Below are positions 2,997 to 34,366 of a stretch of 64,000 nucleotides of DNA, one piece after another. A model generated the notes under the pieces. That model ran no database searches. It was given only the letters and a program-made list of their open reading frames with translations, and was not told the origin of the DNA. The translations under genes were made by a program, and so were the position numbers. Within the stretch, counting starts at the first letter, position 1; every line of letters begins with the position of its first letter. Origin of the DNA: Empedobacter falsenii (GTDB lineage: Bacteria > Bacteroidota > Bacteroidia > Flavobacteriales > Weeksellaceae). Location of the stretch: contig NZ_CP040908.1 of the NCBI RefSeq assembly GCF_013488205.1, positions 905,876-969,875 of the forward strand. Reading direction: 5' to 3'.

Positions 2997-5309
2997 ATGA
3001 AATTTTTACAATTAATTCTCATTTTGATTAGTTCTTTTGCTTTTGCACAAGAAAAATATTCGATTACAGGAAATATTTCATCAAAAAATGAGTCAAAAAC
3101 AATTCAAGCAAAAGTTATTTTACACGATGAATTTCAAAATGTTATTCAAACAATTGAAACTGAAAACTCTAAATTTAACTTTGAAAATTTAGAACAAAAA
3201 ATATATTCAATTTCAGTTATTTATGATAATAAAATTCAAGATGAAGAACCTTTTTATTTGAACGAAAATAAAACATTTCACTTAAATATTGATGAAACTG
3301 TACAAATTAATGAAGTTGTAATCAATGGAAAAAAGGAAACTTTCAAAATAGAAAATGGCAATTATAATATTGATGTAGCTAATTCAAATTTTAATAAACT
3401 TGCTACAACCAAAGAATTATTTTCAAAATTACCAAGCGTCATGTTGGGAGCAGATCAAGAAACATTGACAATTATTGGAAAAGGAAATCCTTTGTTGTAT
3501 TTGGACGATCAACAAGTTGATTTTTCTACCATTTCGAGTTTAGCAATTGAGGACATAAAATCGATTGAAATTATTAAAAATCCATCTGCAAAATATGAAG
3601 CAAATGGAAGATCTGTCGTAAAAATTAACCTTAAAAAAAGTAAAAAAGAAGGTTTAAAATTCTCTTTACAGGAAACATTATCGTTCAAAAGAAAGTTCAA
3701 TAATTATTTCAATTCGACTTTTCAAATTCGTAAAAACAAAAGTGAATTTAAATTGAATGCATCTTATAATCAACTAAATCCTTGGGAAGGAAATGGATTC
3801 GATTATCGAGTAAAAGATAAAAATATTCAGTCCAATTATTTCATAAAATCGCAAACAAAGCGTCCGCATTTTATTGTAAATACAAGCTTTTTTCAAGAAT
3901 TAAATGAATCTGGAGATTATCTTTCATTTGCTATTAATTCGAATTTCAGAAAAGATAAAGGTTTGATTGATACCAAAACAGAATATTCAGAAAACAATGA
4001 AAATCAATCTATTTTAACCTTAAATGATAATGAAAATCATCGAAATTTTGTGAATACCTTGATGAATTACAATAAAAATATTCAATCAATTGACGTAAGT
4101 ATTTTAACAGGTTTGCAATACACGATTTATAATACAGGAACGACATACGATTTTTACAATAAGATAAATGAAAATGATATCGAATACAATCAATCGCGCT
4201 ATCAAAAATATCGTCTTAAGGTTTTTGCAGGGAAATTTGATGTAGAGAAAAAGTTTGAATCTGATCAAAAAATTGAATTTGGAGGACGTTTTACACATGC
4301 AAAATCAGAAACAACTAATCAAACGTTTTTTTCTCAAAAATCATCAGAAGAATTTCTTTATAATTTCAAAGAGCTGAATCTTTCCGCTTATTTGCAATAC
4401 ACAAAAAATTATGAAAAATGGAATTATAAAGCCGGATTAAGAACAGAAGCAACTAATTCTAAAGGTTTTGATGAAATAAAACAACTTTCGGATATTGATA
4501 AAAAATACATTGATTGGTTTCCGAATGCAGAAATTAATTACACTTTTGAGAATAAAGATGCGTTGACAATTTATTACAAACGTACAATTGATAGACCGAA
4601 TTACAGCACCCTTTCTTCTGGGAATTTGTACGGAAGTCCTTATATCGAATACAGCGGAAATTTTAATATTTTACCTACTTACACCGATACGTTTTCTGCG
4701 AATTATTCATTGAAAAAATGGAACATGAATGTGACGTATTATCAAAGTAAAAATCCGATGAATTATACGTTGATTTATGATGATGTGAGAAATATTTCAA
4801 CATTTACAACGGTTAATTTTGAAAAAGAAAAAAATATTTCTGTTGGTTTAGATGTTCCGTTCGAATATAAATTTTGGTCAACACAAATTAGTTTATCTAT
4901 GATTTATAGTAAAATAATTGATAAAAAAGCTGTGCTTAAAAAATCTGTTCCGTATATCTATTTATACTCTAATCATAATTTCAAATTGGGAAAAGATTTT
5001 AATTTTATGCTTGATGGATATTGGCTAAGAAAACGAACAGAAGGAATTTATGATCGAAATTCTCAAGTTATCGTTAACCTTGGATTGACCAAATCATACA
5101 AAAACCTTGATTTTTCTATTCGTTTCAATGATTTATTTAAACAAATGAAATTTAGCGAAACATTGAATTATGATAAAATAAGTTCTAAAAACCTATTTTT
5201 AGTCGATTATCAAGAACTATCTGTTGGTGTTAAATATAATTTTGGCCGATTAAATAAAACCATCTCGAAAGAGAATAAAGTAAATGAAGAGGAAGGGAGA
5301 ATTAGGTAA
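2997..5309 (+). CDS. TonB-dependent receptor-like outer-membrane beta-barrel protein
   Basis: Signal peptide, then a carboxypeptidase-regulatory-like N-domain, a plug-like region and a long beta-barrel with a C-terminal aromatic residue. Confidence 0.7.
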   Translation: MKFLQLILILISSFAFAQEKYSITGNISSKNESKTIQAKVILHDEFQNVIQTIETENSKFNFENLEQKIYSISVIYDNKIQDEEPFYLNENKTFHLNIDETVQINEVVINGKKETFKIENGNYNIDVANSNFNKLATTKELFSKLPSVMLGADQETLTIIGKGNPLLYLDDQQVDFSTISSLAIEDIKSIEIIKNPSAKYEANGRSVVKINLKKSKKEGLKFSLQETLSFKRKFNNYFNSTFQIRKNKSEFKLNASYNQLNPWEGNGFDYRVKDKNIQSNYFIKSQTKRPHFIVNTSFFQELNESGDYLSFAINSNFRKDKGLIDTKTEYSENNENQSILTLNDNENHRNFVNTLMNYNKNIQSIDVSILTGLQYTIYNTGTTYDFYNKINENDIEYNQSRYQKYRLKVFAGKFDVEKKFESDQKIEFGGRFTHAKSETTNQTFFSQKSSEEFLYNFKELNLSAYLQYTKNYEKWNYKAGLRTEATNSKGFDEIKQLSDIDKKYIDWFPNAEINYTFENKDALTIYYKRTIDRPNYSTLSSGNLYGSPYIEYSGNFNILPTYTDTFSANYSLKKWNMNVTYYQSKNPMNYTLIYDDVRNISTFTTVNFEKEKNISVGLDVPFEYKFWSTQISLSMIYSKIIDKKAVLKKSVPYIYLYSNHNFKLGKDFNFMLDGYWLRKRTEGIYDRNSQVIVNLGLTKSYKNLDFSIRFNDLFKQMKFSETLNYDKISSKNLFLVDYQELSVGVKYNFGRLNKTISKENKVNEEEGRIR

Positions 5310-5370
5310 TACTTTTATTTCCAAAATTCAATAAATCGTATAACTTTGCTTTCAAATTTAAAGAAATAAA

Positions 5371-6042
5371 ATGTTTAAATTTATTCGTAAGGTTATACTT
5401 TATCTTTTTGTAGCTCATCTTGTATACATTGTTGTGTTAAAGTGGATTAATCCGCCGTTCACGATTACGCAAGTTCAGCAAGGTTTTGAACAAGGAAAAT
5501 TTAAGCGCGATTATATTTCCTATGACGAAATGGGACGAAATATAAAATTGGCTGTAATTGGTTCTGAAGATCAAAAATTTCCTGTGCACAATGGATTTGA
5601 TATGGATGGAATACAGGAAGCGATTGAAAAGAATAAAGAAGGTAAAAAACTTCGTGGAGGTTCTACGATTTCTCAACAAGTCGCGAAAAATGTGTTTTTG
5701 TGGCAAGGTCGTTCTTGGTTGAGAAAAGGATTAGAAGTTTATTTTACGTTTATGATCGAAAAAATTTGGGGCAAACAACGTATTTTAGAAATGTATCTGA
5801 ATACTTCTGAAATGGGAATTGGTGTTTTTGGTGTTGAAGCTGCTTCTGAATATTATTTCAATAAACCAGCTAAAGATTTAACCAAAAATGAAGCGGCTCG
5901 TATTGCAGCAGCTTTGCCATTGCCACGAAAATATAATGTGAATCCGCCTTCGTCTTTTATCAGTAGACGCGCCAGTCATATCGAGCGACAAATGCGAAAT
6001 ATACAAGGAAGCGCTGATTTGGAAAAGGTTTTAGGAGAATAA
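5371..6042 (+). CDS. mtgA: monofunctional biosynthetic peptidoglycan transglycosylase
   Basis: GT51 motifs: EDQKF, GGSTISQQVAKN, RKxxE, and an N-terminal TM anchor. Confidence 0.85.
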   Translation: MFKFIRKVILYLFVAHLVYIVVLKWINPPFTITQVQQGFEQGKFKRDYISYDEMGRNIKLAVIGSEDQKFPVHNGFDMDGIQEAIEKNKEGKKLRGGSTISQQVAKNVFLWQGRSWLRKGLEVYFTFMIEKIWGKQRILEMYLNTSEMGIGVFGVEAASEYYFNKPAKDLTKNEAARIAAALPLPRKYNVNPPSSFISRRASHIERQMRNIQGSADLEKVLGE

Positions 6043-6085
6043 AATAGAAAAGAGAAGTTAATAAGCTTCTCTTTTTTTATTTTTA

Positions 6086-6568
6086 TTACTCTCTCCAATT
6101 AATTTTAACTGCAGAAATTTTCTCTAATTCCAAACGAGTTTCAGGAAGTAAATTGAAGTCATTTTTCATATAAAAAGCTAACGGAGAACGATAAGGCTCT
6201 CCATTCGCTTTTGTATCTTTTTCATGATCGATTACCCAACCATTTAGTTCTGTCGAAAATGTTTTTAATCGATTAAGAATTTTACGTCCCAAACCAATTT
6301 GATGCAATTCGCTATCTACAATTAATGCAAACCATTTCTCATAATCTCTTTCGAAAATCACCGCCCAAGCTCGCATTTGATTGTTTTCATCTACAGCAAA
6401 AAAATGTTTAGCTTCAATCAAACTATTCAAATAATTTTCGGTATCTTGTAAACTTTCAAAAGCTAGATTAATAGGATATTCATTGTTCCAAATTTTAAAA
6501 ATATAGTCTTTATGAATTTGGTTTAACGTTGTAAATGAATAGATTTCTAATGAGTTAAGTTGAGGCAT
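6086..6568 (-). CDS. GNAT family N-acetyltransferase
   Basis: 160 aa. Acetyl-CoA binding motif Q-x-x-G-x-G (HQIGLGRKILNRL). Confidence 0.7.
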   Translation of the reverse strand: MPQLNSLEIYSFTTLNQIHKDYIFKIWNNEYPINLAFESLQDTENYLNSLIEAKHFFAVDENNQMRAWAVIFERDYEKWFALIVDSELHQIGLGRKILNRLKTFSTELNGWVIDHEKDTKANGEPYRSPLAFYMKNDFNLLPETRLELEKISAVKINWRE

Positions 6569-6601
6569 AAAATGATTTCTTATTTTGCTAAATATACTAA
6601 A

Positions 6602-7357
6602 TTATTTAGTCAAAATTTCTTTTAAAATCAAAGGTTTGTCGGTTGTAATGTAATCCACTTTTAGATCAATCATTTCTTGCATCACTTTTGGGTCGTTAAC
6701 CGTCCAAACATTCACCAATAAACCCAAATCTTTCGCTTCTTTTACCCAAGTCGGATTTTTCTGAAATACTTTATAATTATAGTCAATTCCGTTCCAATTT
6801 CTCGCTTTTACATCTTTTGGAGACAAATCGCCATTCAAATAAGAAACGTGAAATTTAGGTGCTAATTTCTTGAATTCATCACAAATATTTTGACTAAATG
6901 AAATGATTTCAACTTGTTTTTCTACTTTATGTTTTTTGATGATTTCAATTGCTTTTTTTACTGCACGATTTTCGTTTTCTTTTGATGAATGAGGTTTTAA
7001 TTCGAAAATTAATTTAACTTTCTTATTCTTTTTTCCTTGTTCAAAATATTCTTCTAAAGTTGGCATGTTTTCGTTGTTAGCCAATTTCAACGTTTTTAAA
7101 AGAGAAGAATTAGTCATTTCGATTGCATGACCTTGAAAATTATCATCATGATTTACCATCAAAACATCATCAGCGCTAATTAATACGTCAAATTCAGAAC
7201 CATAAGCACCAATTTCTTGTGCAGATTTTAAAGATTTGATCGAATTTTTTGCATTATTCTCGGTGTCCCAATAACCGCGATGAGCAATAATTTTTTGAGC
7301 ATTTGCCATATTCGTAAGCATAAAAGTTGTTAAGGCAGTAAATATAAATTTTTTCAT
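6602..7357 (-). CDS. glycerophosphodiester phosphodiesterase
   Basis: Signal peptide. GDPD motifs IIAHRGY and E-x-D. 251 aa. Confidence 0.8.
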   Translation of the reverse strand: MKKFIFTALTTFMLTNMANAQKIIAHRGYWDTENNAKNSIKSLKSAQEIGAYGSEFDVLISADDVLMVNHDDNFQGHAIEMTNSSLLKTLKLANNENMPTLEEYFEQGKKNKKVKLIFELKPHSSKENENRAVKKAIEIIKKHKVEKQVEIISFSQNICDEFKKLAPKFHVSYLNGDLSPKDVKARNWNGIDYNYKVFQKNPTWVKEAKDLGLLVNVWTVNDPKVMQEMIDLKVDYITTDKPLILKEILTK

Positions 7358-7526
7358 GATGAATTGTTTTTTCGAAGTAAAATTATTTTGTTTAAAGGAT
7401 TTTGACGTTACCTAAAGATTAAGAAGTTGAATTTATAAAAGAATCTGTCGAAAAGCAGTAAATTTTGACTGGAATAAAATTGCGATTGCGCCGAATTTCA
7501 CTTAATTTTGCACAAAGACAAACACA

Positions 7527-9059
7527 ATGACGCAAGGAATTATTATTTTAGATTTTGGCTCGCAATACAATCAATTAATCGCGCGCCGAATTCGAGAATT
7601 TGGAGTTTACACAGAAATTATTCCCTACAACACTTCGATCGAAGAAATCAAAAAACACAATCCAAAAGGAATTATTTTATCAGGAGGACCTTCTTCAGTT
7701 TTTGGAGATGAAGCCGCTTTGGTAGATAAAGAATTATTCGAAATGGGCGTTCCTGTTTTAGGAATTTGCTACGGAATGCAATTGATTTCGCACTTATTAG
7801 GCGGAGAAGTTAAGAAAGGTGAAAAAGGTGAATATGGAAAATCTGAATTAACAGTTTTAGCTCAAAACAGTTTATTTGCAGGTGTTCCAGAACAATCTAC
7901 AGTTTGGATGAGCCATTTCGACGAAGTAATGACAGCGCCAACTGGATTTACAATTTCAGGAAAATCAAACATAGATATTGCGGCAATCGCAAATGAAGAT
8001 AAAAAGATTTTTGCAGTACAATTTCACCCAGAAGTAACGCATTCAGAATATGGTTCAACAATGTTAGAAAACTTTGTTTTCAATATTTGTCAGGCTGAAA
8101 AGAATTGGGTTTTAAAAGATTTTATCGAAACAGAAATTGCTCGTATAAAAGAAGTAGTTGGTGATAAAAAAGTAATTTTAGGACTTTCTGGAGGTGTTGA
8201 TTCTTCTGTTGCTGCGGTTTTGATTCATCGTGCAATTGGCGATCAATTAACATGTATTTTTGTTGATACTGGTTTATTGAGAAAAGATGAAGGAAAAAAA
8301 GTAATGGAAAATTACGGAAAACACTTCAACATGAACATTAAAATGGTAGATGCTTCAGAACGTTTCTTAACAAACTTGAAAGGTATTGACGAACCAGAAG
8401 CAAAACGTAAATCAATTGGTAAAGATTTCGTGGCTGTTTTTGATGAAGAATCAAATAAATTTGAAGATGCAGCATTCTTAGCGCAAGGAACTATTTATCC
8501 TGATGTAATCGAATCGCAATCTGTAAAAGGACCTTCTGCAACTATCAAATCTCACCACAATGTTGGTGGATTACCAGAAGATATGAAACTTCAATTATTA
8601 GAACCATTACGCGAATTATTCAAAGATGAAGTACGTAAAGTTGGAGTAGAATTAGGAATTCCTCGTGAATTAGTTTACCGTCATCCTTTCCCAGGACCAG
8701 GTTTAGGAATTCGTGTTTTAGGAGAAGTTGACGAAGAAAAAGTACGTATTTTACAAGAAGCAGATCAAATTTTTATCGACGAGCTTTATGCACATAATTT
8801 ATACGACGAAGTTTCTCAAGCTTTCGTGGTGTTATTACCTGTAAAATCTGTTGGAGTAATGGGAGACGAGCGTACATACGAATATACGGCGGTTGTTCGT
8901 TCAGCAAATACGATCGATTTTATGACAGCAACTTGGTCTAAATTACCTTACGAATTCTTAGAATTAGTTTCGAACAGAATTATCAATGAGGTAAAAGGAA
9001 TTAACCGTGTAGCCTACGATATCAGCTCAAAACCACCAGCAACAATCGAGTGGGAATAA
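7527..9059 (+). CDS. guaA: GMP synthase (glutamine-hydrolysing)
   Basis: N-terminal GATase (ILDFGSQY, GICYGMQL catalytic Cys) followed by the ATP-PPase motif SGGVDSSV. 510 aa. Confidence 0.95.
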   Translation: MTQGIIILDFGSQYNQLIARRIREFGVYTEIIPYNTSIEEIKKHNPKGIILSGGPSSVFGDEAALVDKELFEMGVPVLGICYGMQLISHLLGGEVKKGEKGEYGKSELTVLAQNSLFAGVPEQSTVWMSHFDEVMTAPTGFTISGKSNIDIAAIANEDKKIFAVQFHPEVTHSEYGSTMLENFVFNICQAEKNWVLKDFIETEIARIKEVVGDKKVILGLSGGVDSSVAAVLIHRAIGDQLTCIFVDTGLLRKDEGKKVMENYGKHFNMNIKMVDASERFLTNLKGIDEPEAKRKSIGKDFVAVFDEESNKFEDAAFLAQGTIYPDVIESQSVKGPSATIKSHHNVGGLPEDMKLQLLEPLRELFKDEVRKVGVELGIPRELVYRHPFPGPGLGIRVLGEVDEEKVRILQEADQIFIDELYAHNLYDEVSQAFVVLLPVKSVGVMGDERTYEYTAVVRSANTIDFMTATWSKLPYEFLELVSNRIINEVKGINRVAYDISSKPPATIEWE

Positions 9060-9075
9060 GCTAAAAAATATATCA

Positions 9076-9102
9076 AAGCCAGCCAATGTGCTGGCTTTTT
9101 TT
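9076..9102 (+). terminator. intrinsic terminator after guaA
   Basis: AAAGCCAGCC-AATGT-GCTGGCTTT followed by a T7 run. Confidence 0.75.
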
Positions 9103-9132
9103 CTATGTAAACTTTAAAAAACTAAATATTAA

Positions 9133-9702
9133 ATGGAACTTTTAAAAGAAAGAATTCTGAAGGATGGAAAAAGTTTCGATGGTGGCATTCTAAAAGTTGA
9201 TAGTTTTATCAACCACCAAATGGACCCTGTTCTGATGAAAGCAATAGCGTCGGAATTTGTCCAGCGATTTTCGGATTTAAACATTAATAAAATCATTACA
9301 ATCGAAGCGAGCGGAATTGCACCAGCGATTATGGTTGGATTAGAATTGAATTTGCCTGTTGTTTTTGTGAAAAAAGCTAAACCTAAAACAATGGCAGATT
9401 TTTATGCGTCGCAAGTATATTCATTCACGAAAGACCGAACGTACGATGTTTGCGTAAGTAGCCAATTTCTGAATGAAAATGATAATGTTATTTTTATTGA
9501 TGATTTTTTAGCGAACGGAAATGCAGCGTTGGGTGTTGAAGATTTGATAAAACAATCTGGCGCAAACCTTTTGGGAATGGGCTTTATAATTGAGAAATCA
9601 TTTCAAGAAGGTCGTGATCGTTTACTGAATGAAAACATCAGAGTTGAATCATTAGTAAGATTAAAATCTTTAGGAGACAACTCGATTATTTTTGAAGAAT
9701 AA
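9133..9702 (+). CDS. xpt: xanthine phosphoribosyltransferase
   Basis: 189 aa. PRTase fold with the PRPP-binding motif [10 protein letters not shown]; the N-terminus matches XPRT. Confidence 0.8.
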
Positions 9703-9715
9703 AAAATATCAACCA

Positions 9716-9743
9716 AAAGCCAATTTATATTGGCTTTCTTTTT
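9716..9743 (+). terminator. intrinsic terminator after xpt
   Basis: AAAGCCAAT-TTATA-TTGGCTTT followed by a T-rich run. Confidence 0.7.
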
Positions 9744-9776
9744 ACTTTTAAAAAACAAAAAACTTACCTTGATAAT

Positions 9777-10949
9777 ATGAAAATAAAATTACTTGCTTTA
9801 ACGCTCTCTTTACTATTCTTTACAAATTGTAATTCGTACAAATCGGCGAATTCTGCATTGGTTTCTGGTAATTTTCAGCAAGCTTTTGAGCAATCTACAC
9901 AAGCCTATTTCAAAAACCCATCGGAGAAAAATGGAATCAAATATGTCCCATTAATTTTTGAAGCGTATAACAAAGGACAGCAAGAAGATGAAAATAGATT
10001 AAAACAAATTGAAACGTTGACTAATCCTTCTAAATATCAGGAAGCGTATCAAATTATTAATCGTTTGCAAGAAAGACAAAAAACGATTGCAGGAATTGAT
10101 GGAAGATCGATTAGTGGGAAAACGTATAATTTCAAAACCAAAGATTATTCAGCAGCTTATAAAACGATTCAAGAAAAATATGCGCAATTTTTATATGATG
10201 AAGGAAAATCTTTTTTAAATCAAGGAGGAAAATTGAATGCGCAAACGGCCTATCAAAAGTTTCAAGTTTTAGAAAGTGTTTATTCTAATTATAAAGATAC
10301 TCGTAGTTTGATGAATACCGCTCGTACAAACGGAATGTATAAAGTTTTGGTGCAATTGGTGAACAACACAGAAGTTGTTATTCCTAAACTACTAGAGAAA
10401 GATTTGTTAGATTTTAACTCATATGGATTGGATTCTAATTGGACTGAATTTTACACAGGAAAACTAAATAGCTCGTATGATTATGTGATTCAATTAAGTT
10501 TTGAGACAATAAATGTTTCGCCTGAAAGAGAAAAAATTGAGGTACATAATTTTGAGAAAAAAATTGTGGATGGTAAAGAAGAATTGGTGCAAAATGGAGT
10601 AGTGGTAAAGGATAAAGACGGAAAACCAGTGATGGTAGATCGTTATATTACGGTAAAAAGTAGATTCGAAGAAGTACAACGCATCAAAGAAGCTGCAATT
10701 ACAGCGAGATATTATTTGATCGATAATCAAAAAGAGCAAGCCATTGATTCTAAAAACTTAGCAAGTCAGTTTATTTTTAGAGATTCTTACGGAACTTACA
10801 AAGGAGATCGACGTTCTTTGGATCGAGATTACATAAATATGATTGGTAGAAGACCAGCTCCATTTCCATCAAATGAACAAATGATTTTTGATTGTGGACA
10901 AGATTTGAAACGTAAATTCAAGAACGAAATCATCCGTATGAAGCTTTGA
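9777..10949 (+). CDS. hypothetical lipoprotein
   Basis: Lipobox signal peptide (LLFFTNC). No recognisable catalytic motifs. Confidence 0.5.
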   Translation: MKIKLLALTLSLLFFTNCNSYKSANSALVSGNFQQAFEQSTQAYFKNPSEKNGIKYVPLIFEAYNKGQQEDENRLKQIETLTNPSKYQEAYQIINRLQERQKTIAGIDGRSISGKTYNFKTKDYSAAYKTIQEKYAQFLYDEGKSFLNQGGKLNAQTAYQKFQVLESVYSNYKDTRSLMNTARTNGMYKVLVQLVNNTEVVIPKLLEKDLLDFNSYGLDSNWTEFYTGKLNSSYDYVIQLSFETINVSPEREKIEVHNFEKKIVDGKEELVQNGVVVKDKDGKPVMVDRYITVKSRFEEVQRIKEAAITARYYLIDNQKEQAIDSKNLASQFIFRDSYGTYKGDRRSLDRDYINMIGRRPAPFPSNEQMIFDCGQDLKRKFKNEIIRMKL

Positions 10950-11094: not shown

Positions 11095-11165
11095 AGACCC
11101 ATGGTGTAACGGTAGCACATCGGTTTTTGGTGCCGCTAGTTGGGGTTCGAATCCCTGTGGGTCTA
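11095..11165 (+). tRNA. tRNA-Gln (anticodon UUG), copy 1
   Basis: Hand-folded cloverleaf. 7-bp acceptor stem AGACCCA/TGGGTCT, U8, D-loop AACGGTA with A14 and G18G19, anticodon loop UUUUGGU (U33, UUG, G37), T-loop TTCGAAT. CCA is not encoded. Confidence 0.85.
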
Positions 11166-11175
11166 CAAAAGTCTT

Positions 11176-11207
11176 ATGCCTCGATAAGCAATTGTTGAGG
11201 CATTTTT
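11176..11207 (+). terminator. hairpin plus T-run after tRNA-Gln copy 1
   Basis: ATGCCTC-14 nt loop-GAGGCAT followed by TTTT. Confidence 0.5.
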
Positions 11208-11257
11208 ATCTAACTTAGTTAAGAGAAAAGTTGCAAAAATTGAAATAAAATTTAGTC

Positions 11258-11328
11258 AGACCCATGGTGTAACGGTAGCACATCGGTTTTTGGTGCCGCT
11301 AGTTGGGGTTCGAATCCCTGTGGGTCTA
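11258..11328 (+). tRNA. tRNA-Gln (UUG), copy 2, identical to copy 1
   Basis: Exact 71-nt repeat of copy 1. Confidence 0.85.
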
Positions 11329-11368
11329 CAATTTTTTCTTTTCAATTTTTAACATAATAATCATGGAC

Positions 11369-11439
11369 AGACCCATGGTGTAACGGTAGCACATCGGTTT
11401 TTGGTGCCGCTAGTTGGGGTTCGAATCCCTGTGGGTCTA
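11369..11439 (+). tRNA. tRNA-Gln (UUG), copy 3, identical to copy 1
   Basis: Exact 71-nt repeat of copy 1. Confidence 0.85.
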
Positions 11440-11447
11440 CAGATTTT

Positions 11448-24336: not shown

Positions 24337-24909
24337 ATGAGACTTTTTTTATTGGTTTTTTCCTTACATATTGTGTTATTTGTTGATGCGCAAAATGTTA
24401 ACCCAAATCAAATTCGAACAAAAATTTACGATACTATTTTACAAGATATCCAAAAACAAAGTTTAGAATTTCCGAACAAAAAAATTGTGGTAGATCCTAC
24501 GATTAATAAGTTTGAAGATTATAAAATGGACGAATTTGGGCTGAAATTAGATTCGGCGAAATATCTACAAGACACTTCAATTTGTTCTAAATTAACAACC
24601 TATAAATGCGTTTCGAAATTTGAGATTGATAATTATTCGATTGCCAATGTTTACAAAGATGAAGAAGATGCGCTATATCCTGACTTTTATGGAATTTATG
24701 CACCAATTGATTCGTGGTACAATTTGATTTATTATGCGGCTGTTAATCATTTTGAGAAGGATAGAGAATTTCAATTTAACGTCTTAATTCCAGTTCGAAA
24801 TGTGCAAATGAAAAATAAAACGATGAAGGAAAAAATGTTCTTTTATAACGTTTTGTTTGATGAGCAATTTAAGATTCTAAAATTTGAAAAATTATTATTA
24901 AAACATTAA
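24337..24909 (+). CDS. hypothetical secreted protein
   Basis: Signal peptide. No recognisable motifs. Confidence 0.4.
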   Translation: MRLFLLVFSLHIVLFVDAQNVNPNQIRTKIYDTILQDIQKQSLEFPNKKIVVDPTINKFEDYKMDEFGLKLDSAKYLQDTSICSKLTTYKCVSKFEIDNYSIANVYKDEEDALYPDFYGIYAPIDSWYNLIYYAAVNHFEKDREFQFNVLIPVRNVQMKNKTMKEKMFFYNVLFDEQFKILKFEKLLLKH

Positions 24910-24954
24910 AATTCAATCAGAAAAGTTGTAAATTAGCAAGACTCAAATTTTTAA

Positions 24955-25473
24955 TTGATGTTAAACGTTAGCGCTTATATAGACGAGCTTTTGCAGTTAT
25001 CAAAAGGCAATTTACGGATTTGCCGTATGAATTGGTGGCTTTTAAAATACGAAGATGAATTTGAGAAAGCAATAGAACAAACGTCTTGTAAAAAGTGGCA
25101 AAGATGGCTTTATAATGGAGAACATCCATATCCATGTGTTTGTCCAAAGCGCGAAAAATTATGCGTTTTTATCGATTTATATCGTGAATTGGATCGTTTG
25201 ACACAAGTGCAACGTTTAGAGAATTTTTTTCACGAATATTTTCAAAAATTTGAGTTGATTAAAGATTCAAAAGAATCTTTAAAAAATTGGATGAATGATA
25301 TTCGTCCAACGATTTCCTCTATTTATTTATTATTGGATAAGAATGATAATCTAAAAATTAGATTTTATAATTCGGATCCAGTTTTGGAAGTGAATATCAA
25401 TAAAAATGATTATAAATACACTTTGTTGTGTTTGGATATTTTTAACTACAACATGTATGTAAGAGGCATGTAA
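24955..25473 (+). CDS. hypothetical protein (Cys-rich N-terminal half)
   Basis: 172-aa ORF with no homology I can place. Confidence 0.35.
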   Translation: MMLNVSAYIDELLQLSKGNLRICRMNWWLLKYEDEFEKAIEQTSCKKWQRWLYNGEHPYPCVCPKREKLCVFIDLYRELDRLTQVQRLENFFHEYFQKFELIKDSKESLKNWMNDIRPTISSIYLLLDKNDNLKIRFYNSDPVLEVNINKNDYKYTLLCLDIFNYNMYVRGM

Positions 25474-26762: not shown

Positions 26763-27203
26763 ATGAAGAAATATTTATTTGTATTTTTTGTTTGTATTAG
26801 CATAATGTTGTTTTCACAAGAGTCTATAAAAACTCCTTTGATATATCTAAGTTGTAAAAAAGTTGAACAGAAGGGAAATGAGGAGTTGAATAAATGTTTT
26901 AAACAAAATTTTAGAAAAGATTTTTATAAAATGGTAAGCATGGAATTAAGGTCGAGAAACTTAATTACGAATTACCTTCTTAAAGCTAAATTCAATTTTA
27001 TTTTTGATGAAAATGGTATAATTTCTATTTCTGATTTTGAAGGAAGTGAGGACACGAAAGATATTGTAGAAAAGTCTTTATTTAGGTTAAATGAGAGAAT
27101 TAAAGGAGGTAAATATAAAATTATTCCAGCAAAGAATAATGAAGGAGAATATATAGAAACCACTATAAAAATTCCATTTCAATATGCATTTGTGAGAAGT
27201 TAA
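26763..27203 (+). CDS. hypothetical secreted protein
   Basis: Signal peptide. 146 aa. Confidence 0.4.
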   Translation: MKKYLFVFFVCISIMLFSQESIKTPLIYLSCKKVEQKGNEELNKCFKQNFRKDFYKMVSMELRSRNLITNYLLKAKFNFIFDENGIISISDFEGSEDTKDIVEKSLFRLNERIKGGKYKIIPAKNNEGEYIETTIKIPFQYAFVRS

Positions 27204-28176: not shown

Positions 28177-28208
28177 AAATGCCTGAACAATTGTTCAGGC
28201 ATTTTTTT
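28177..28208. terminator. bidirectional terminator shared by hemF and rtcB
   Basis: AAATGCCTGAACAA-TTGTTCAGGCATTT followed by a T-run. Confidence 0.75.
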
Positions 28209-29652
28209 AATCTTCTCTCGATCCGTCATCGGCCATTCTGACCATTTTAGGTGTAAAAGTAGCCACAACATCTACTAAATCTTGTTGCGCAGCCATTACT
28301 TCGTGAATATCTTTATATGCCATTGGCGCTTCATCCTTTCCACCACCAATTAATGTAATTCCAAAATAATTCAAATAATCGTTTATCTTATTTTGAGATA
28401 ATGATTTAATCGCTTGTGTTCGGCTCATTTGTCGACCAGCTCCATGCGAAGCAGAATGAATCGAATTTTCTTCACCTTTTCCTCGAACCAAAAATCCTGG
28501 CGCAGTCATAGAACCTGGAATAATTCCCATTATATCTTTAGAAGCTGGCGTTGCACCTTTTCGATGAACAATGACTTCTTCGCCATTGTAAATTTCTTTC
28601 CAAGCAAAATTATGATGATTTTCTACTTTCGCTAAAACTTCAGCACCAATTGATTTTGCAATTTTTTGATGAATAATTTCGTGACAAGCTGAAGCATATT
28701 CACCCGCCAAATTCATCGCAATCCAATATTCTTGACCTTCGGCTGAATCTAAATCTAAATAAGCCAAATTCTGTGCTTTGTACGGAAGTTTACAAATTTC
28801 TTTTGCAATTTTTGTATAATGTCCAGCGATTGTAGCGCCAAAACCTCTCGATCCAGAGTGCGTTAGCAAAGCCAAATATGAACCTTTTTTGATGTTCAGT
28901 TTTTCATCATCTTCCTTGAAATCAATCAAACCAAATTCTACAAAATGATTTCCTCCACCAGAAGAACCCAATTGCGACCACGCTTTATCTTTTAAATTTT
29001 GAATAAATGAATTCGTCTCGAATTTTGCATCATCTAAAATCTGATGTTCAGCTTTGTATTGACCATGAAAACCATGTCCTGCACCAAATTTTGTATTTTT
29101 GATCAAAGTTTCTTTTAATGAATCGTGATGTTCAAAATAATGAGAAGCAGGTAAATCATAAATCGATAAAGCCATTCTACATCCAATATCAACGCCGACA
29201 CCATAAGGAATAATCGCATTTTTGGTTGCTAAAACTCCGCCAATTGGTAATCCATAACCTTGATGCGCATCAGGCATAATTGCGCCAGCAACGGTAACAG
29301 GAAGTTTCATGGCGACTTTCATTTGTTCTAAAGCGCCGTCCTCAATTTTTTCCGCACCATAAATTTTGAAATCGGTTGGATTTTCATTCAATTCAATCAA
29401 GTTTTCATCTTGATTTGGTAAATGAATTCCATCGATAAAGCCTTTTGCAAGCGTTTTGAAAATTTTATCTTCTAAAAAATCTTGTGGCGAAGAAAAAACT
29501 TGCGCATATTTATCAAGCATTTCGGCTTTTGTGTAACCATTTCTTTTTTTGTTGATTTTTAAGGCAATTCCTAAAATTTCGTTTTCAGGATAACCCAAGG
29601 CAATCAAATCGTTTCCATTGATCGGTTTATTTTGTTGTTCAGTTGTTTTCAT
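28207..29652 (-). CDS. rtcB: RtcB family RNA 3'-phosphate/2',3'-cyclic-phosphate--5'-OH ligase (481-aa archaeal/eukaryal-length form)
   Basis: Motifs MPDAHQGYG, GSSGGGNHF, NHHNF and SASHGAGR (metal, GTP and His-GMP sites). Its start overlaps the upstream gene by 14 nt. Confidence 0.95.
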   Translation of the reverse strand: MKTTEQQNKPINGNDLIALGYPENEILGIALKINKKRNGYTKAEMLDKYAQVFSSPQDFLEDKIFKTLAKGFIDGIHLPNQDENLIELNENPTDFKIYGAEKIEDGALEQMKVAMKLPVTVAGAIMPDAHQGYGLPIGGVLATKNAIIPYGVGVDIGCRMALSIYDLPASHYFEHHDSLKETLIKNTKFGAGHGFHGQYKAEHQILDDAKFETNSFIQNLKDKAWSQLGSSGGGNHFVEFGLIDFKEDDEKLNIKKGSYLALLTHSGSRGFGATIAGHYTKIAKEICKLPYKAQNLAYLDLDSAEGQEYWIAMNLAGEYASACHEIIHQKIAKSIGAEVLAKVENHHNFAWKEIYNGEEVIVHRKGATPASKDIMGIIPGSMTAPGFLVRGKGEENSIHSASHGAGRQMSRTQAIKSLSQNKINDYLNYFGITLIGGGKDEAPMAYKDIHEVMAAQQDLVDVVATFTPKMVRMADDGSRED

Positions 29653-30706
29653 ATAATTTGGTTCTAAGGTTGATTAAAAATTCTTCCATTTTCGAAGAGT
29701 TTATTTCGGTTGGAAGAAAATTTAGTTTAGATTTTTCTTCAATTTCTCGTTGTAAATTTTCAGCTTTTTCGATTACTTCTTCATAAGAAAAATCTCCGTT
29801 TTTTATCGCTAATAATTCGTCACGATCTTCTGTTCGTTTTACATTTAGGTTTCCTGTTTCCACTAATTCTTTCGCAACTTTTAACAAACGAATCGTGTGC
29901 ATCATATTTTTACTATCGTAATTTTTTTCATGCGCAATGTTTGTTGTGTAACGATCTTCATTTCGCAATTTCATCCAATCCCAATATTCTTTGTATTGCT
30001 TGCAATAAGTGGAATATTCATCTTTTTGGAAAATGAAATAGGCAATTGGTTTTTCATTTTTAGGAATTTCACTCAAACGAATATCATCATTATTTTTATC
30101 TTTTACGATTCCTTTATAATTCGATTTTTCGTTGTAATAAAGCGCAAATAAATCTTTCGAATGATTGATTTTACTTAGTCCGCAAAACGCTTGTTTGTAA
30201 GAATTTGAATTCATCCAATCAACAAAAGAAATGGTTTTGTTATCATCAATAATATAACAAAAATCAAGAACGGTTTTTCTGATTTCATCTATTGGATTTA
30301 GAAATTTCTTGTTCAATCCTTTTGCTTTTTTGATTTGACTCAAGGCGTATCCAACAAATGTTTTCTCAACTTCTGATGTGATAAACTCTTTATAATTTAA
30401 TTCATCTAACAAAGGCGATTTATACAGAACAAATTCTTCTGGAGTTGCTAGGATTTCTAAACAACTCGGATTATTTTTCAATAATAATTCAATGAATCGA
30501 CCAATTTCATAATATACAATATCATTGGTTTCGTTGCTCACTTGCGTTTGATATTCGAAACCATAAAATTCATTTTTAGGTAAATAAAAAATGCCACGAA
30601 TATCAGTGTCTGAATTTTTAGTTGCCAAATTATAGGCTTTGCTTCCGCTTATACATTCAAATAGAATTAAATTTTGACTTTTTAGATCTTCTATTGTTAG
30701 TTTCAT
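29639..30706 (-). CDS. Pol-beta superfamily nucleotidyltransferase (long paralog, 355 aa)
   Basis: N-terminal GS-x(9)-DxD motif (ISGSKAYNLATKNSDTDIRG). ATGA overlap with the upstream gene. Confidence 0.7.
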   Translation of the reverse strand: MKLTIEDLKSQNLILFECISGSKAYNLATKNSDTDIRGIFYLPKNEFYGFEYQTQVSNETNDIVYYEIGRFIELLLKNNPSCLEILATPEEFVLYKSPLLDELNYKEFITSEVEKTFVGYALSQIKKAKGLNKKFLNPIDEIRKTVLDFCYIIDDNKTISFVDWMNSNSYKQAFCGLSKINHSKDLFALYYNEKSNYKGIVKDKNNDDIRLSEIPKNEKPIAYFIFQKDEYSTYCKQYKEYWDWMKLRNEDRYTTNIAHEKNYDSKNMMHTIRLLKVAKELVETGNLNVKRTEDRDELLAIKNGDFSYEEVIEKAENLQREIEEKSKLNFLPTEINSSKMEEFLINLRTKLYENN

Positions 30707-31458
30707 TTTGTTACGGTTTTAATGAAAAATACATTGATTTTGTTTTTATCAAATTCAATTTTTGGTAATTTTTCGGTTTCGATTTTTAATTCATTTTTCA
30801 AATTAATTAACCAATCGAAAAGTTCATCATTTTTCGAAATTCTAAAACTTTCATCAACATTTGCTTTGATTTCAAGATATTTATCCACTCGGTTTTCGAT
30901 TGTTTTATCTCCGATTAAATGTTTTAATTTTTCAAATTCCATCGGAGGAATTGTTTTATTTTCTACAATCCATTTCGCTGAAAGAACCGAACGTAAAGTA
31001 TAAAACAAACTTTTGAGTTTAATTTCGTTTTGATGTTCCATTTCAATCAATCGCTTTGTTGTAATTCCCAAATAATGCATGGTAACTTTTTGAGAATTGA
31101 ATTGTGAAGCAGCTAAATTGAACAATTCTTTTTCGAAAATTTCATCAGAAATATAATGAATCGGAGATTGTAAATATTCGTTAATACTCGAATTTGATTT
31201 CAACATTAAGCGCAAAACTTTTTGAATATCCCAACCTTTAAAATCCAGTTCATCTATAATTTCTAAATCAATAAAATCATCAATTGGGTCAATTTTTAGA
31301 TAATCTTCAATTTTTCGTTTGTAAATAAATCGAACATCGTAATCGCTGTCAGTAGAAGGGAAGCCCCAAGCGCGGCTCCCAGATTCTATAGCAAAAAGAA
31401 TTTTGACGTTATATTTATCTTCTATTTCTTTTAATTTATTTATAATGATTGGTTTCAT
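30703..31458 (-). CDS. Pol-beta superfamily nucleotidyltransferase (short paralog, 251 aa; Nuc-transf-like)
   Basis: GS-x(9)-DxD motif (ESGSRAWGFPSTDSDYDVRF). ATGA overlaps at both ends. Confidence 0.7.
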   Translation of the reverse strand: MKPIIINKLKEIEDKYNVKILFAIESGSRAWGFPSTDSDYDVRFIYKRKIEDYLKIDPIDDFIDLEIIDELDFKGWDIQKVLRLMLKSNSSINEYLQSPIHYISDEIFEKELFNLAASQFNSQKVTMHYLGITTKRLIEMEHQNEIKLKSLFYTLRSVLSAKWIVENKTIPPMEFEKLKHLIGDKTIENRVDKYLEIKANVDESFRISKNDELFDWLINLKNELKIETEKLPKIEFDKNKINVFFIKTVTK

Positions 31459-32546
31459 TTCGTAAACATTGTTTTTAGTTCATTTAACACATTCGATCCG
31501 CCAGAAATTGAGATTTCTCCCACTTTATCAGCAATTTTTTCGATGTATTCCATTTCTTTCAATTTCCATAACGTTTCGTTTTCTTCCATCAATTTCGCAG
31601 TGTTCAACAAGCTTCTTGTCGAAGCAGTTTCCTCACGACGCGTAATCGAATTGGCTTGAGCCGTTTTTTCGGCAATCAAAACGCGGTTCATAATTTCTCT
31701 TATTTCTCCTGGAAGAATAATGTCTTTCATACCTGCGTCAATCAATTTTAGACCAATTTCTTGGAATTGAGCTTGATATTTTTGAATGATATAATTCGTT
31801 ACCGAATTTTTATCCGACATCAAATCATCAAAATTCATGTTTCCAATAAATTCTCTCAAACCTAATTGAATCGCTTGATAAATCATTTTTTCGAAATCTT
31901 TGTTCGATTGATAAGCGTTTAACAAATCAGTAATTTGATAATTTACCATAAAATTGATTCGCAATTGCGCTTTATCTTTTGTCAAAATTTCTTGTCCCGA
32001 AATTTCAATTGTTTGCGGACGCATATCAAAAGAAACCATCGAAATTTTTGTTTCGTTGTTGTAAAATTGGTATTCACCAGCTTTTAAAACCGAATCAAAT
32101 TCATTGTCTTTGAATAAAATTCCTTCGAAATATGGCGCAACAGAAATGATACGAATAGCTCCAGCTTTTCTCAAAATATCAATTTCTCTTTTTGTTAAAT
32201 TTTTAATTTCTTCAGTAGAATTCAACTCAAATTTTACAGCTTTTAATTGAGTTGAATTTTTCCAAATCATCACGTTTTTATTGTAAAATGAATTATAGAT
32301 TTGATTGTTTTTACATATAATTAACACTTCATTGTGTAATACTTCGATAAAATCTACCATCGATTTCAAAGTTTCATTTTCTAAAAACATTGTGTGGTAT
32401 TTTTCATCAATTATTTCGTTGATGTTTAATTTTTCGATGTTTTTATTGAATAAAATCCAATAGTTTCCTTTTGTGTAAACTTTTTCGATTTCGTTGTTTT
32501 TGATATAGATTCCAATTTCTTGGTTGTTAATTGCTAATTTTTTCAT
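31455..32546 (-). CDS. SPFH/band-7 (stomatin-like) domain protein, first gene of the rtcB operon
   Basis: SPFH-like core (QLRINFMVNYQITD ... AEKTAQANSITRREETAS) and a C-terminal coiled region. No TM helix is evident. Confidence 0.55.
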   Translation of the reverse strand: MKKLAINNQEIGIYIKNNEIEKVYTKGNYWILFNKNIEKLNINEIIDEKYHTMFLENETLKSMVDFIEVLHNEVLIICKNNQIYNSFYNKNVMIWKNSTQLKAVKFELNSTEEIKNLTKREIDILRKAGAIRIISVAPYFEGILFKDNEFDSVLKAGEYQFYNNETKISMVSFDMRPQTIEISGQEILTKDKAQLRINFMVNYQITDLLNAYQSNKDFEKMIYQAIQLGLREFIGNMNFDDLMSDKNSVTNYIIQKYQAQFQEIGLKLIDAGMKDIILPGEIREIMNRVLIAEKTAQANSITRREETASTRSLLNTAKLMEENETLWKLKEMEYIEKIADKVGEISISGGSNVLNELKTMFTK

Positions 32547-32867: not shown

Positions 32868-33090
32868 ATGGTACCCTTTCGGGCGATAAAAACAGATTAA
32901 AAGTCTGATTTTAATGATTACTCTACCAACTGAGTTATTTCAGTTTCCTGAAAGTAGGAATCGAACCTACGACCCATCATTAATGATTGCTATACCGCTC
33001 AGCTATTTCAACCTCAGTTGAAAATGGGATTCGAACCCATGTGCATCATTGGGATTTTAATTATTCAGAATAGAAGTGATGAAACATTTT
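32868..33090 (-). ncRNA. candidate Y-RNA-like (YrlA-type) ncRNA carrying two tandem circularly permuted tRNA-like modules, upstream of the rtcB operon
   Basis: Minus-strand order in each module is T-arm, acceptor 3' strand, tetraloop, acceptor 5' strand, TA, D-arm, all closed by an AATGAT/ATCATT stem. T-loops are TTCGAAT and TTCGATT; D-loops contain GG. The 3' flank has a GCCC-GAAA-GGGT hairpin and ends in ACCA. Confidence 0.6.
32913..33050 (-). repeat. two tandem 69-nt units (32913-32981 and 32982-33050) forming the tRNA-like modules
   Basis: The units align end to end and show compensatory stem changes: TTTCAG/CTGAAA versus TTTCAAC/GTTGAAA, GTAGG/CCTAC versus ATGGG/CCCAT, ACTC/GAGT versus GCT/AGC. 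Confidence 0.7.
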
Positions 33091-33346
33091 CTACTACAAT
33101 GCTATACTGAAACATTTGTCAAGGAACAATTAAAATCGTTTGGTTGTTAAACCTTTGACAAAGTTGGAGTAGAAGTGTGCGAATGAATTGCGCAATAAAA
33201 TATTTTTTCAAAATAATTTATAAACTATTATGAATAGAGGGTTTTGTATTGAAAATATTTTGAATAAAAGTTGAAATAAAAATTTCTACGCAAATAGATT
33301 GCGTACTTTGATTTGAAATTTGTAGTATTGAACAAAGAAATCAACC

Positions 33347-34366
33347 ATGGCAACCAATAAAATTGCATTAATACGTTATCAAACGATCGATAAATGTCTT
33401 CAAAATCATTTTAGAAAATGGACATTAGAAGATTTGATAGAAAAAGTTTCGGAAGCATTGTATGAATATGAAGGAATAACTTCTGGTGTTTCGAAACGTA
33501 CAATTCAGGGCGATATACAAGTGATGCGCAGTGATAAATTGGGTTATAATGCGCCAATTGTTGTTCGAGAAAAAAAGTTTTATGAATACGAAGATCGTGA
33601 TTATTCGATTCATAATTCGCCTGTTTCGTCTGCTGATTTAGACAAAATGAAAGAAGTGATTTCGGTGATGAAACAATTGAATGGTTTTAATTATTTTGAT
33701 GATATGAACGAGATTATTACGCGTCTCGAAAATAATTTATCCAAACAAACTCATCAACAACCAAATTATATTCAGTTTGAGGAAAATCCTTTATTAAAAG
33801 GTTTGGAGCATTTGAATCGGTTGTATCAAGCAATTGTGAAGAAGCAACCTTTGTTGATTTCGTATCAATCATTCAAGGCAAAAAATCAAGAGCCAAAACA
33901 ACAAGTTTATTATCCGTATTTGTTGAAAGAATATCGTAATCGTTGGTTTTTATTGGCAAAATCGAGAAAAGATAAAAATTTGTATACGTTGGCTTTGGAC
34001 AGAATAGTTGAATTTTATGAGTTGGCAAATGAACCTTTTGTGGATGAGCAAGAGATTAATTTTGATACGTATTACAACAATGCGATTGGTGTAACGAAAA
34101 GTGTGAAAGAAAGAGAGCAACGTGTTGTTTTTCGTGTGAATAAAAAATTGGCGCCTTATGTGGTGACAAAACCAATTCATGCGACGCAAAAAGTATTGGA
34201 AGTGACGGATGAAGGAACTTTATTTTCGATAGAAGTTGTACATAATTTTGAGTTGGAACGAGAGCTTTTAGGATTTGGAGAAGAAATAGAAGTTCTTGCG
34301 CCGAGATTAGTGAAAAAAAGAATTAAAACACGATTAGAAAAAGCATTAGAAAAATATAAAAAATAG
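33347..34366 (+). CDS. HTH plus WYL-domain transcriptional regulator, divergent from the rtcB operon
   Basis: N-terminal wHTH followed by a WYL motif region (YYPYLLKEYRNRWFLLAKSR ... YTLALDRIV) and a C-terminal WCX-like extension. 339 aa. Confidence 0.8.
   Translation: MATNKIALIRYQTIDKCLQNHFRKWTLEDLIEKVSEALYEYEGITSGVSKRTIQGDIQVMRSDKLGYNAPIVVREKKFYEYEDRDYSIHNSPVSSADLDKMKEVISVMKQLNGFNYFDDMNEIITRLENNLSKQTHQQPNYIQFEENPLLKGLEHLNRLYQAIVKKQPLLISYQSFKAKNQEPKQQVYYPYLLKEYRNRWFLLAKSRKDKNLYTLALDRIVEFYELANEPFVDEQEINFDTYYNNAIGVTKSVKEREQRVVFRVNKKLAPYVVTKPIHATQKVLEVTDEGTLFSIEVVHNFELERELLGFGEEIEVLAPRLVKKRIKTRLEKALEKYKK

Follow-up and report, generated by a model that had tools for sequence, protein, structure and literature searches.

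In a 64,000-nucleotide (nt) stretch of Empedobacter falsenii DNA (the window), four minus-strand genes encode an SPFH/Band-7 protein, two RlaP nucleotidyltransferases and an RtcB RNA ligase. We consider it quite likely that they form a WYL-regulated chromosomal operon for the repair of RNA damage, of the Band-7(SPFH)/RlaP/RtcB type. The unit runs from a pair of operators beside a divergent WYL regulator gene, through a leader of about 550 nt and the genes for SPFH, RlaP-short, RlaP-long and RtcB, to an intrinsic terminator. A preliminary description of the locus had presented the cassette as non-canonical. It is not a new type: the combination of a Band-7 protein, RtcB and a tRNA-like RNA is already credited to Burroughs and Aravind (2016; doi 10.1093/nar/gkw722). 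As quoted in bioRxiv 10.1101/312249, they placed RtcB beside a Band-7 protein and a predicted 'b7a-tRNA', in a system class predicted by comparative genomics.

To compare the locus with its relatives, one genome per species was scanned with an alignment of SPFH homologues. This gave 80 Bacteroidota loci (numbered below with the prefix L), 64 of which have full flanks.

Organization of the operon and its proteins

The genes, with families assigned by Pfam profile search, are listed here in transcription order; all coordinates are window positions.

31455-32546, minus strand: soluble SPFH/Band-7 protein, 363 amino acids (Band_7, E = 2.9e-24), in which three N-terminal beta repeats precede a stomatin-type SPFH core and a long C-terminal helix
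30703-31458, minus strand: RlaP-short nucleotidyltransferase, 251 amino acids (RlaP, 229.6 bits over the full length, E = 6.1e-68)
29639-30706, minus strand: RlaP-long nucleotidyltransferase, 355 amino acids (RlaP, 78.6 bits over residues 11-127, E = 7.7e-22), with an insert of about 100 amino acids
28207-29652, minus strand: RtcB 3'-phosphate/5'-OH RNA ligase, 481 amino acids (RtcB, 282.8 bits, E = 7.7e-84), with about 65 extra N-terminal residues
28176-28205, no strand assigned: bidirectional intrinsic terminator (13-bp stem and T run) directly after the rtcB stop codon, ending the operon

Successive genes overlap by 4, 4 and 14 nt, as read from the junction sequences. The SPFH/RlaP-short and RlaP-short/RlaP-long junctions are ATGA overlaps (AAATGAAACC and AAATGAAACT), and the RlaP-long/RtcB junction is ATGAAAACAACTGA. 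The preliminary description had already given these overlaps as the mark of a single tightly coupled unit; its coordinates and junctions proved exact, and a terminator does follow rtcB. Because the N-termini of the operon proteins are kept in orthologues, the start codons and overlaps are credible, and the overlaps together with the single terminator argue for co-translation.

Both nucleotidyltransferases belong to RlaP (Pfam PF10127), a family of RNA-ligase-associated Pol-beta nucleotidyltransferases named for its occurrence next to RNA ligases, a finding of Burroughs and Aravind (2016). Against a curated cut-off of 23 bits, RlaP-short matches over its full length and RlaP-long over its N-terminal nucleotidyltransferase half. 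The ANT, MNT, CCA-adding and CD-NTase families, put forward earlier as identities to be checked, were rejected for both proteins, which score far above the RlaP threshold. The two share 26% identity over the N-terminal 158 amino acids and their C-terminal helical parts align too, so that they are paralogues, as had been claimed. In RlaP-short, ESGSRAWGF...DSDYD and the acidic residue of GWD are essentially invariant across 11 orthologues, the minor substitutions falling outside the catalytic residues; in RlaP-long, the motif GS...SD.D...YYE is invariant in 12. With GS...DxD and the third acidic residue invariant in both, neither looks like a dead copy. NCBIfam has no model for either protein, and a PDB sequence search with both gave no match, the reported PfRlaP crystal structure included. 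An AlphaFold2 model of RlaP-long (pLDDT 74, below 50 in the catalytic region) retrieved nothing below E = 0.05 in a Foldseek search of the PDB, and its C-terminal half gave nothing credible in Pfam at E <= 10.

Two Pseudomonas RlaPs, PfRlaP and PaRlaP, add one or two nucleoside monophosphates (NMP) to RNA 3'-OH ends, favouring the broken end of a cleaved-tRNA mimic (PMC12776372, a December 2025 preprint), and RlaP is present in several counter-RNase systems. By analogy with the Pseudomonas enzymes, the two RlaPs here would be predicted to add nucleotides as well, and the published activity agrees with the 3'-end remodelling proposed for them in the preliminary description. That description also held the biochemistry to be unestablished, which is still so for the system as a whole, a prediction only, and no longer entirely so for RlaP, whose activity has been partly established in Pseudomonas.

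Aligned to Pyrococcus horikoshii RtcB (PH1602), the ligase retains the metal-binding and guanylylation residues (PDAHQGYG, DIGC, GGNHF, HSGSRG and SASHGAGR) and, as judged from these motifs, is catalytically complete. It fits no NCBIfam RtcB model at threshold, its scores falling below the cut-offs, and its N-terminal extension has no credible Pfam match at E <= 10. The Pfam assignments, the orthologue alignments and this alignment together bear out the composition first given for the operon: an SPFH protein, two paralogous nucleotidyltransferases with GS...DxD, and an RtcB with all its motifs.

The first protein of the operon has the SPFH fold and a C-terminal oligomerisation helix, which place it in the SPFH/Band-7 superfamily. 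Membrane association through this protein, as suggested earlier, was not borne out: its maximum 19-residue Kyte-Doolittle window is 1.20, and no transmembrane segment was found. The membrane-anchored slipin/stomatin/HflKC class was rejected on the N-terminus, which consists of beta repeats with no membrane anchor, and the protein is below all NCBIfam curated cut-offs, HflK/HflC included. A Pfam search of the repeats at E <= 10 gave nothing credible; the repeats are spanned by matches to the major vault protein (MVP) only. The close structural neighbours of the SPFH fold are all ring- or cage-forming assemblies.

A divergent regulator and its predicted operator

Upstream of the operon lie the leader and, on the opposite strand, the regulator gene. 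Their features, read from the regulator towards the SPFH start codon, are as follows.

33347-34366, plus strand: WYL-WCX transcription regulator, 339 amino acids, divergent (Pfam WYL 3.7e-11, WCX 5.5e-13; PADLOC WYL 8.8e-26)
33287-33305, no strand assigned: operator 1, inverted repeat TACGCAA-TCTAT-TTGCGTA, 41 nt from the WYL start, kept in close relatives
33176-33195, no strand assigned: operator-like site 2, TTGCGCAA-TTCAT-TCGCACA, second half degenerate, about 110 nt from operator 1, kept in relatives
33142-33167, minus strand: conserved leader box CCAACTTTGTCAAAGGTTTAACAACC, a candidate 5' part of the leader RNA or promoter element, kept in L001-L005
32982-33050, minus strand: tRNA-like module 1, in the order AATGAT, variable loop, T arm, closed acceptor hairpin TTTCAAC-TGAG-GTTGAAA, TA, D arm, ATCATT
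32913-32981, minus strand: tRNA-like module 2, of identical permuted topology (AATGAT...T arm...TTTCAG-GAAA-CTGAAA...D arm...ATCATT)
32893-32907, minus strand: anticodon-stem-loop-like hairpin CAGA-CUUUUAA-UCUG, with a 7-nt loop, U33, purine 37 and the triplet UUU, kept in L001-L003
32623-32860, minus strand: 3' leader domain, which a 12-bp long-range helix (AAAAAAGCTAAA / TTTAGCTTTTTT) closes, with a U-rich run after it

NCBIfam has no model for the WYL protein. Its putative operator recurs: the motif TRCGCAR-N5-YTGCGYA is present in most of 37 WYL regions, mostly 37-85 nt from the WYL start and in a few cases about 200-230 nt from it, and in many loci a second copy follows at a distance of about 100-135 nt. 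Of the 37 WYL regions, 31 contain the 6-mer TACGCA, as against 3 of 37 controls. There is thus strong comparative evidence for a predicted WYL operator that would govern both divergent transcription units.

A leader RNA with tandem permuted tRNA mimics

The two modules are tandem units of about 69 nt each, in which the acceptor stem is closed by a tetraloop, the circularly permuted tRNA-mimic topology of YrlA. We tested this structure for covariation on a MAFFT alignment of 56 upstream regions, with 500 shuffles and slid registers as controls. In the permuted structure 93.2% of cells are paired, with 431 double-sided changes, and its covariation score is 0.663, compared to 0.228 when shuffled (0 of 500) and 0.08-0.17 in slid registers.

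Two conventional tRNA calls were obtained from the same region: Rfam tRNA (RF00005) matches positions 32946-33012 (43 bits), straddling both modules, and ARAGORN calls a 'tRNA-Pyl' at 33016-33100. This canonical reading was rejected. The acceptor pairing it implies reaches 53.8%, against 51.7% when shuffled, with no covariation support, and the anticodon loop would have about 1-4 nt instead of 7; the competing hairpins of the permuted reading are 94% and 75% paired, and compensatory changes in them are numerous. As the canonical acceptor pairing is no better than chance, the tRNA calls are mis-parses. The Rfam YrlA model (RF02553) partly matches positions 32915-32978 with the same topology, at 36.1 bits against a gathering threshold of 69; the match covers model positions 23-86 only, the tRNA-like domain, and a Ro-binding stem was not detected in the leader RNA.

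In most of the 80 loci, pairs of T-loop motifs lie 58-78 nt apart, 300-650 nt upstream of SPFH. The number of modules varies: two are present in the window and in L002, and three in some Sphingobacterium and Bacteroidia loci. A single module was found in E. sedimenti, in E. brevis, in Faecalibacter and in a Weeksellaceae genome, the window having been compared with L001, L003, L004 and L005 at about positions 6500-6700 of these loci.

An equivalent of the anticodon-like hairpin is found in 36 of 57 sequences, with U33 and purine 37 kept. Its triplet differs by lineage (UUU in 10, CAA in 10, GAA in 3, UAG in 3, and also ACG, GUU, GUA and others); this points to selection acting on the identity of the anticodon loop that the hairpin mimics.

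Conservation extends through the rest of the leader, in close relatives as far as the SPFH start codon. The first part of the leader box, CCAACTTTGT, is invariant in six of six sequences, and a similar CAACTTGATTTGGAGGTTT occurs in distant loci. Further downstream, the 12-bp helix AAAAAAGCUAAA / UUUAGCUUUUUU (32860-32849 with 32634-32623) closes a structured domain of about 215 nt, and the U run lies some 75 nt ahead of the SPFH start codon. The helix is present in the minimum-free-energy fold (whole-leader z = -3.5), and both of its strands are kept in relatives, L005 showing a compensatory change (GCTGAAA / TTTCAGC) that was spotted by eye. Helix and U run could possibly be the 3' end of a non-coding RNA, an attenuator or a conditional terminator.

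Conservation across Bacteroidota

Among the 64 full-flank loci, at least one T-loop module lies upstream in 63, RtcB is within 7 kb of SPFH in 39, a WYL orthologue is divergent from SPFH or RtcB in 32, and the short-plus-long RlaP pair is present in 9. Both elements that had been tied to the system beforehand, the WYL regulator and the tRNA-like RNA, belong to the conserved unit. Its core in the related loci consists of SPFH, the tRNA-like leader RNA, the conserved operator and the divergent WYL gene, with RtcB usually present as well; the RlaP pair is a sporadic insert that always comes paired. Conserved linkage, which the preliminary description had wished to see checked, therefore holds for rtcB, SPFH and WYL, but the four-gene form is one variant among others.

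RlaP-long was always preceded by a short RlaP in the loci examined. RlaP adjoins RtcB in the window and in L001-L003, L005, L010, L036, L046, L077 and L083, and the two are about 5 kb apart in L081. Contexts seeded with RlaP-long (Chryseobacterium, Niastella and a Cytophagaceae strain) have a short RlaP just upstream in all three, adjacent or one small open reading frame (ORF) away, a WYL gene nearby in all three and RtcB in two. The exception to the linkage of RlaP with a ligase is the Niastella locus, L082, where positions 3715-10059 hold a WYL gene, an unannotated 742-amino-acid protein, a small S24-like protein and the short and long RlaPs, with no RtcB or Band-7 gene. It may represent a different variant, either ligase-less or with a novel ligase.

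Where RtcB is missing, SPFH is followed by Hen1, by PNKP and RlaP, or by a metallophosphoesterase and an RNase T-like exonuclease; other RNA-repair modules in the place of RtcB fit a modular repair scaffold. Variants in which SPFH and the tRNA-like RNA are kept and RlaP-RlaP-RtcB is replaced were recorded at L050:8397-9791, L072:8116-10093 and L012:8418-10987, a set comprising Hen1; RlaP and PNKP; and a 167-amino-acid protein with a metallophosphoesterase, an RNase T-like exonuclease and a bpX4-domain protein. Several loci that seem to lack RtcB carry it upstream of a tRNA array (L023, L028 and L033).

These counts bear on whether the four genes belong together at all. SPFH and the RNA could be one unit, with the RlaP pair and RtcB as independent chance neighbours in this lineage, and such a reading would account for the rarity of the RlaP pair, for the 25 of 64 loci with no RtcB within 7 kb, and for RlaP pairs such as that of L082 that stand without Band-7 or RtcB. 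We regard it as very improbable. Chance neighbours would not be expected to overlap by a few nucleotides ahead of a single terminator, and the order SPFH-RlaP-RlaP-RtcB recurs in Weeksellaceae, Sphingobacterium, Pedobacter and a metagenome-assembled genome (MAG) of the Flavobacteriaceae. Besides this MAG, the genomes with exactly this order belong to Empedobacter, Faecalibacter, a Flavobacteriales MAG, Sphingobacterium cavernae and Pedobacter caeni. Moreover, the genes that replace RtcB encode other RNA-repair enzymes, and some of the loci without a neighbouring RtcB have it beyond the tRNA array.

tRNA arrays in related loci

In 25 of the 80 loci, the stretch from the WYL gene or RtcB to the permuted tRNA-like RNA holds an array of 3-14 tRNA genes in the SPFH orientation, a position that puts the arrays inside the apparent regulated unit. 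Loci with an array include L009, L012, L013, L015, L018, L019, L021, L023-L026, L028, L029 and L031, and further L033, L043, L044, L048, L049, L056 and L057. L029 (1864-3545) and L031 have 14 tRNAs each, and L057 (3576-4376) has 8. By type, Asp-GUC leads with 19, followed by Pro-UGG with 15, His-GUG with 14, Leu-UAG and Phe-GAA with 12 each and Lys-UUU with 11; no tRNAs for Gly, Val or Thr are present, and those for Ala and Ile occur once or twice only. Many of the array tRNAs are atypical: the Asp type has U37, D arms are odd, a CCA end is not encoded, and Rfam scores run from 30 to 74 bits. There is no array at the window's own operon locus. The array tRNAs may be the 'b7a-tRNAs' of Burroughs and Aravind (2016).

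One rival reading makes the leader RNA a substrate of the operon's own enzymes instead of a cofactor. In that case the modules would be opened by a cut in the acceptor-closing loop, RtcB would religate them, and the RlaPs would extend the 3' end in a CC-adding/A-adding manner. This would yield stress-inducible tRNAs, functional or decoy, comparable to what is known from the permuted tRNA genes of red algae. In its favour, covariation does support the permuted topology; module 2 in many loci carries a full anticodon arm with U33, purine 37 and lineage-specific triplets; a ligase and two nucleotidyltransferases of a family that adds one or two nucleotides are encoded downstream; and related loci hold tRNA arrays in the regulated unit. 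Against this, neither module of the window has an anticodon loop, since flanking strands close the anticodon-like stems, the acceptor-closing loops have only 3-8 nt and no CCA, no processing enzyme is encoded, and the closest known RNA, YrlA, acts as an uncleaved tRNA mimic. We therefore think it improbable that the leader is processed in this way.

Genomic setting and the possibility of a defence role

The operon is chromosomal and lies among housekeeping genes, in a region of unremarkable base composition. The eight flanking ORFs encode HemF, a 2-oxoglutarate oxygenase, a polysaccharide deacetylase, a holin-like protein, glycyl-tRNA synthetase and three proteins without a Pfam match. RtcA, archease, Ro and RtcR, reported absent in the preliminary description, are indeed not found among these eight, the remainder of the 64-kb window having had no exhaustive scan. 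The three small ORFs without a Pfam match, at 24337-25473 and 26763-27203 on the plus strand, encode proteins of 190, 172 and 146 amino acids, two of them with signal-peptide-like N-termini. Three tandem tRNA-Gln(UUG) genes at 11095-11440 (plus strand, 55.5 bits each), 22 kb from the operon, appear to be ordinary housekeeping tRNAs.

One could also see in the operon an anti-phage or abortive-infection system, in which signalling nucleotides are the product of the nucleotidyltransferases and SPFH serves as membrane effector or scaffold. SPFH proteins are found in some defence contexts, and WYL regulators often accompany defence systems; in a PADLOC-DB 2.0 scan the WYL regulator, and it alone, was matched. 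None of the four operon proteins matches any defence-system model of that database, though, no effector gene is present among the operon and flanking ORFs, and the SPFH protein has no transmembrane segment to suit a membrane effector. The nucleotidyltransferases are RlaP rather than CD-NTase, and RlaP adds NMP to RNA ends. The housekeeping surroundings and the lack of any compositional anomaly likewise speak against this reading, which has in our view only a slight chance of being correct, and nothing was found to support the nucleotide-signalling role considered in the preliminary description.

Comparison with known systems

The nearest class is that of Band-7, RtcB and b7a-tRNA. As defined in a secondary source, it shares with the operon a Band-7 gene adjoining RtcB, a tRNA-like RNA upstream and RlaP nearby. 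According to that source the b7a-tRNA 'strongly resembles an authentic tRNA' (bioRxiv 10.1101/312249), whereas the RNA of the window follows a permuted, YrlA-like structure and not the canonical one.

The Salmonella operon rsr-yrlBA-rtcBA, which encodes Ro60, Y RNAs, RtcB and RtcA and is activated by RtcR/CARF on tRNA fragments, is built on a similar plan: RtcB, a ring-forming RNA-binding scaffold, a permuted tRNA-mimic RNA and a ligand-sensing regulator come together in one damage-induced operon, the induction and the sensing being predictions for the window. Here, SPFH stands in place of Ro60, no RtcA is found among the flanking ORFs, and a WYL protein replaces the sigma-54/CARF activator; the leader RNA consists of tandem modules and scores below the YrlA gathering threshold. 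Membership of the rtcBA/RtcR operons was rejected, with neither RtcA nor RtcR among the flanking ORFs and a WYL-WCX regulator.

The rtcB-rlaP-rtcA operons of Pseudomonas likewise combine RlaP, RtcB and an SPFH gene in one locus, the SPFH gene of the P. aeruginosa rtc locus being PaFlo8. Pseudomonas has one RlaP together with RtcA and RtcR, whereas Empedobacter has the short and long pair, with RtcA and RtcR not found among the flanking ORFs. In Anabaena, the TrcR regulon comprises rtcB, the slipin gene alr0740 and the 26-gene trn tRNA array, co-repressed by TrcR and induced by translational stress. This co-regulation of RtcB, an SPFH/slipin protein and spare tRNA genes parallels the Bacteroidota loci with arrays. 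The Anabaena genes are dispersed and their repressor is a ribbon-helix-helix protein, not WYL, and alr0740 is a putative counterpart of the SPFH protein here. Finally, the eukaryotic vault (MVP with vault RNA) resembles the locus in its beta-repeat domains, SPFH 'shoulder', long helix and small non-coding RNA partner.

Proposed function

If the operon serves RNA repair, as we think likely, breakage of RNA by ribotoxins, anticodon nucleases or translational stress would relieve WYL control. RtcB would then reseal 2',3'-cyclic-phosphate or 3'-phosphate ends to 5'-OH ends in tRNA or rRNA, and the RlaP pair, probably acting as a heteromer, would add back one or two nucleotides to trimmed 3'-OH ends, whether of the break or of the CCA terminus. 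SPFH, a soluble protein, may oligomerise into a ring or cage and, with the tRNA-like leader RNA, serve as a scaffold or decoy, in the manner of Ro60 and YrlA. A more elaborate version is tentative and, on balance, doubtful: the leader RNA and SPFH would form a Ro- or vault-like ribonucleoprotein, the hairpin would bait anticodon nucleases, the RlaP heteromer and RtcB would between them solve the mismatch of 3'-OH and 3'-phosphate ends, and sister lineages would add arrays of spare, atypical tRNAs.

Several points weigh against the repair proposal. RlaP gives a 3'-OH end and RtcB needs a 3'-phosphate or 2',3'-cyclic phosphate, and with no kinase, phosphatase or cyclase encoded the two activities do not connect chemically; the authors of the RlaP study acknowledge that its 3'-OH product is incompatible with RtcB (PMC12776372). 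RlaP activity is known from Pseudomonas enzymes in a different operon context, and the operon type as a whole is known solely as a comparative-genomics prediction. On the side of transcription, a sigma-70 scan was uninformative (29 sites against 26.4 expected), and the Bacteroidota TAnnTTTG box was not found in the intergenic region. The inducing signal, the contact between RNA and SPFH, SPFH oligomerisation, the RlaP heteromer and the order of reactions are proposals from family knowledge.

Significance

Because the system class was predicted in 2016, the operon will not surprise specialists, but the tandem permuted RNA, the obligate pairing of a short with a long RlaP, the WYL operator and the embedded tRNA arrays may be additions to the accessible literature. 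RtcB systems occur widely in bacteria, and their natural substrates and accessory factors are poorly understood. A compact operon with no RtcA or RtcR among its flanking ORFs offers a clean genetic setting for the question of how the 3'-OH product of RlaP would lead to the 3'-phosphate that RtcB needs. The predicted operator, the covariation-supported RNA structure and the rule of paired RlaPs are concrete experimental handles. The operon also bears on the use that a soluble SPFH assembly would make of a tRNA-mimic RNA, and on the signal that WYL regulators would read in RNA damage.

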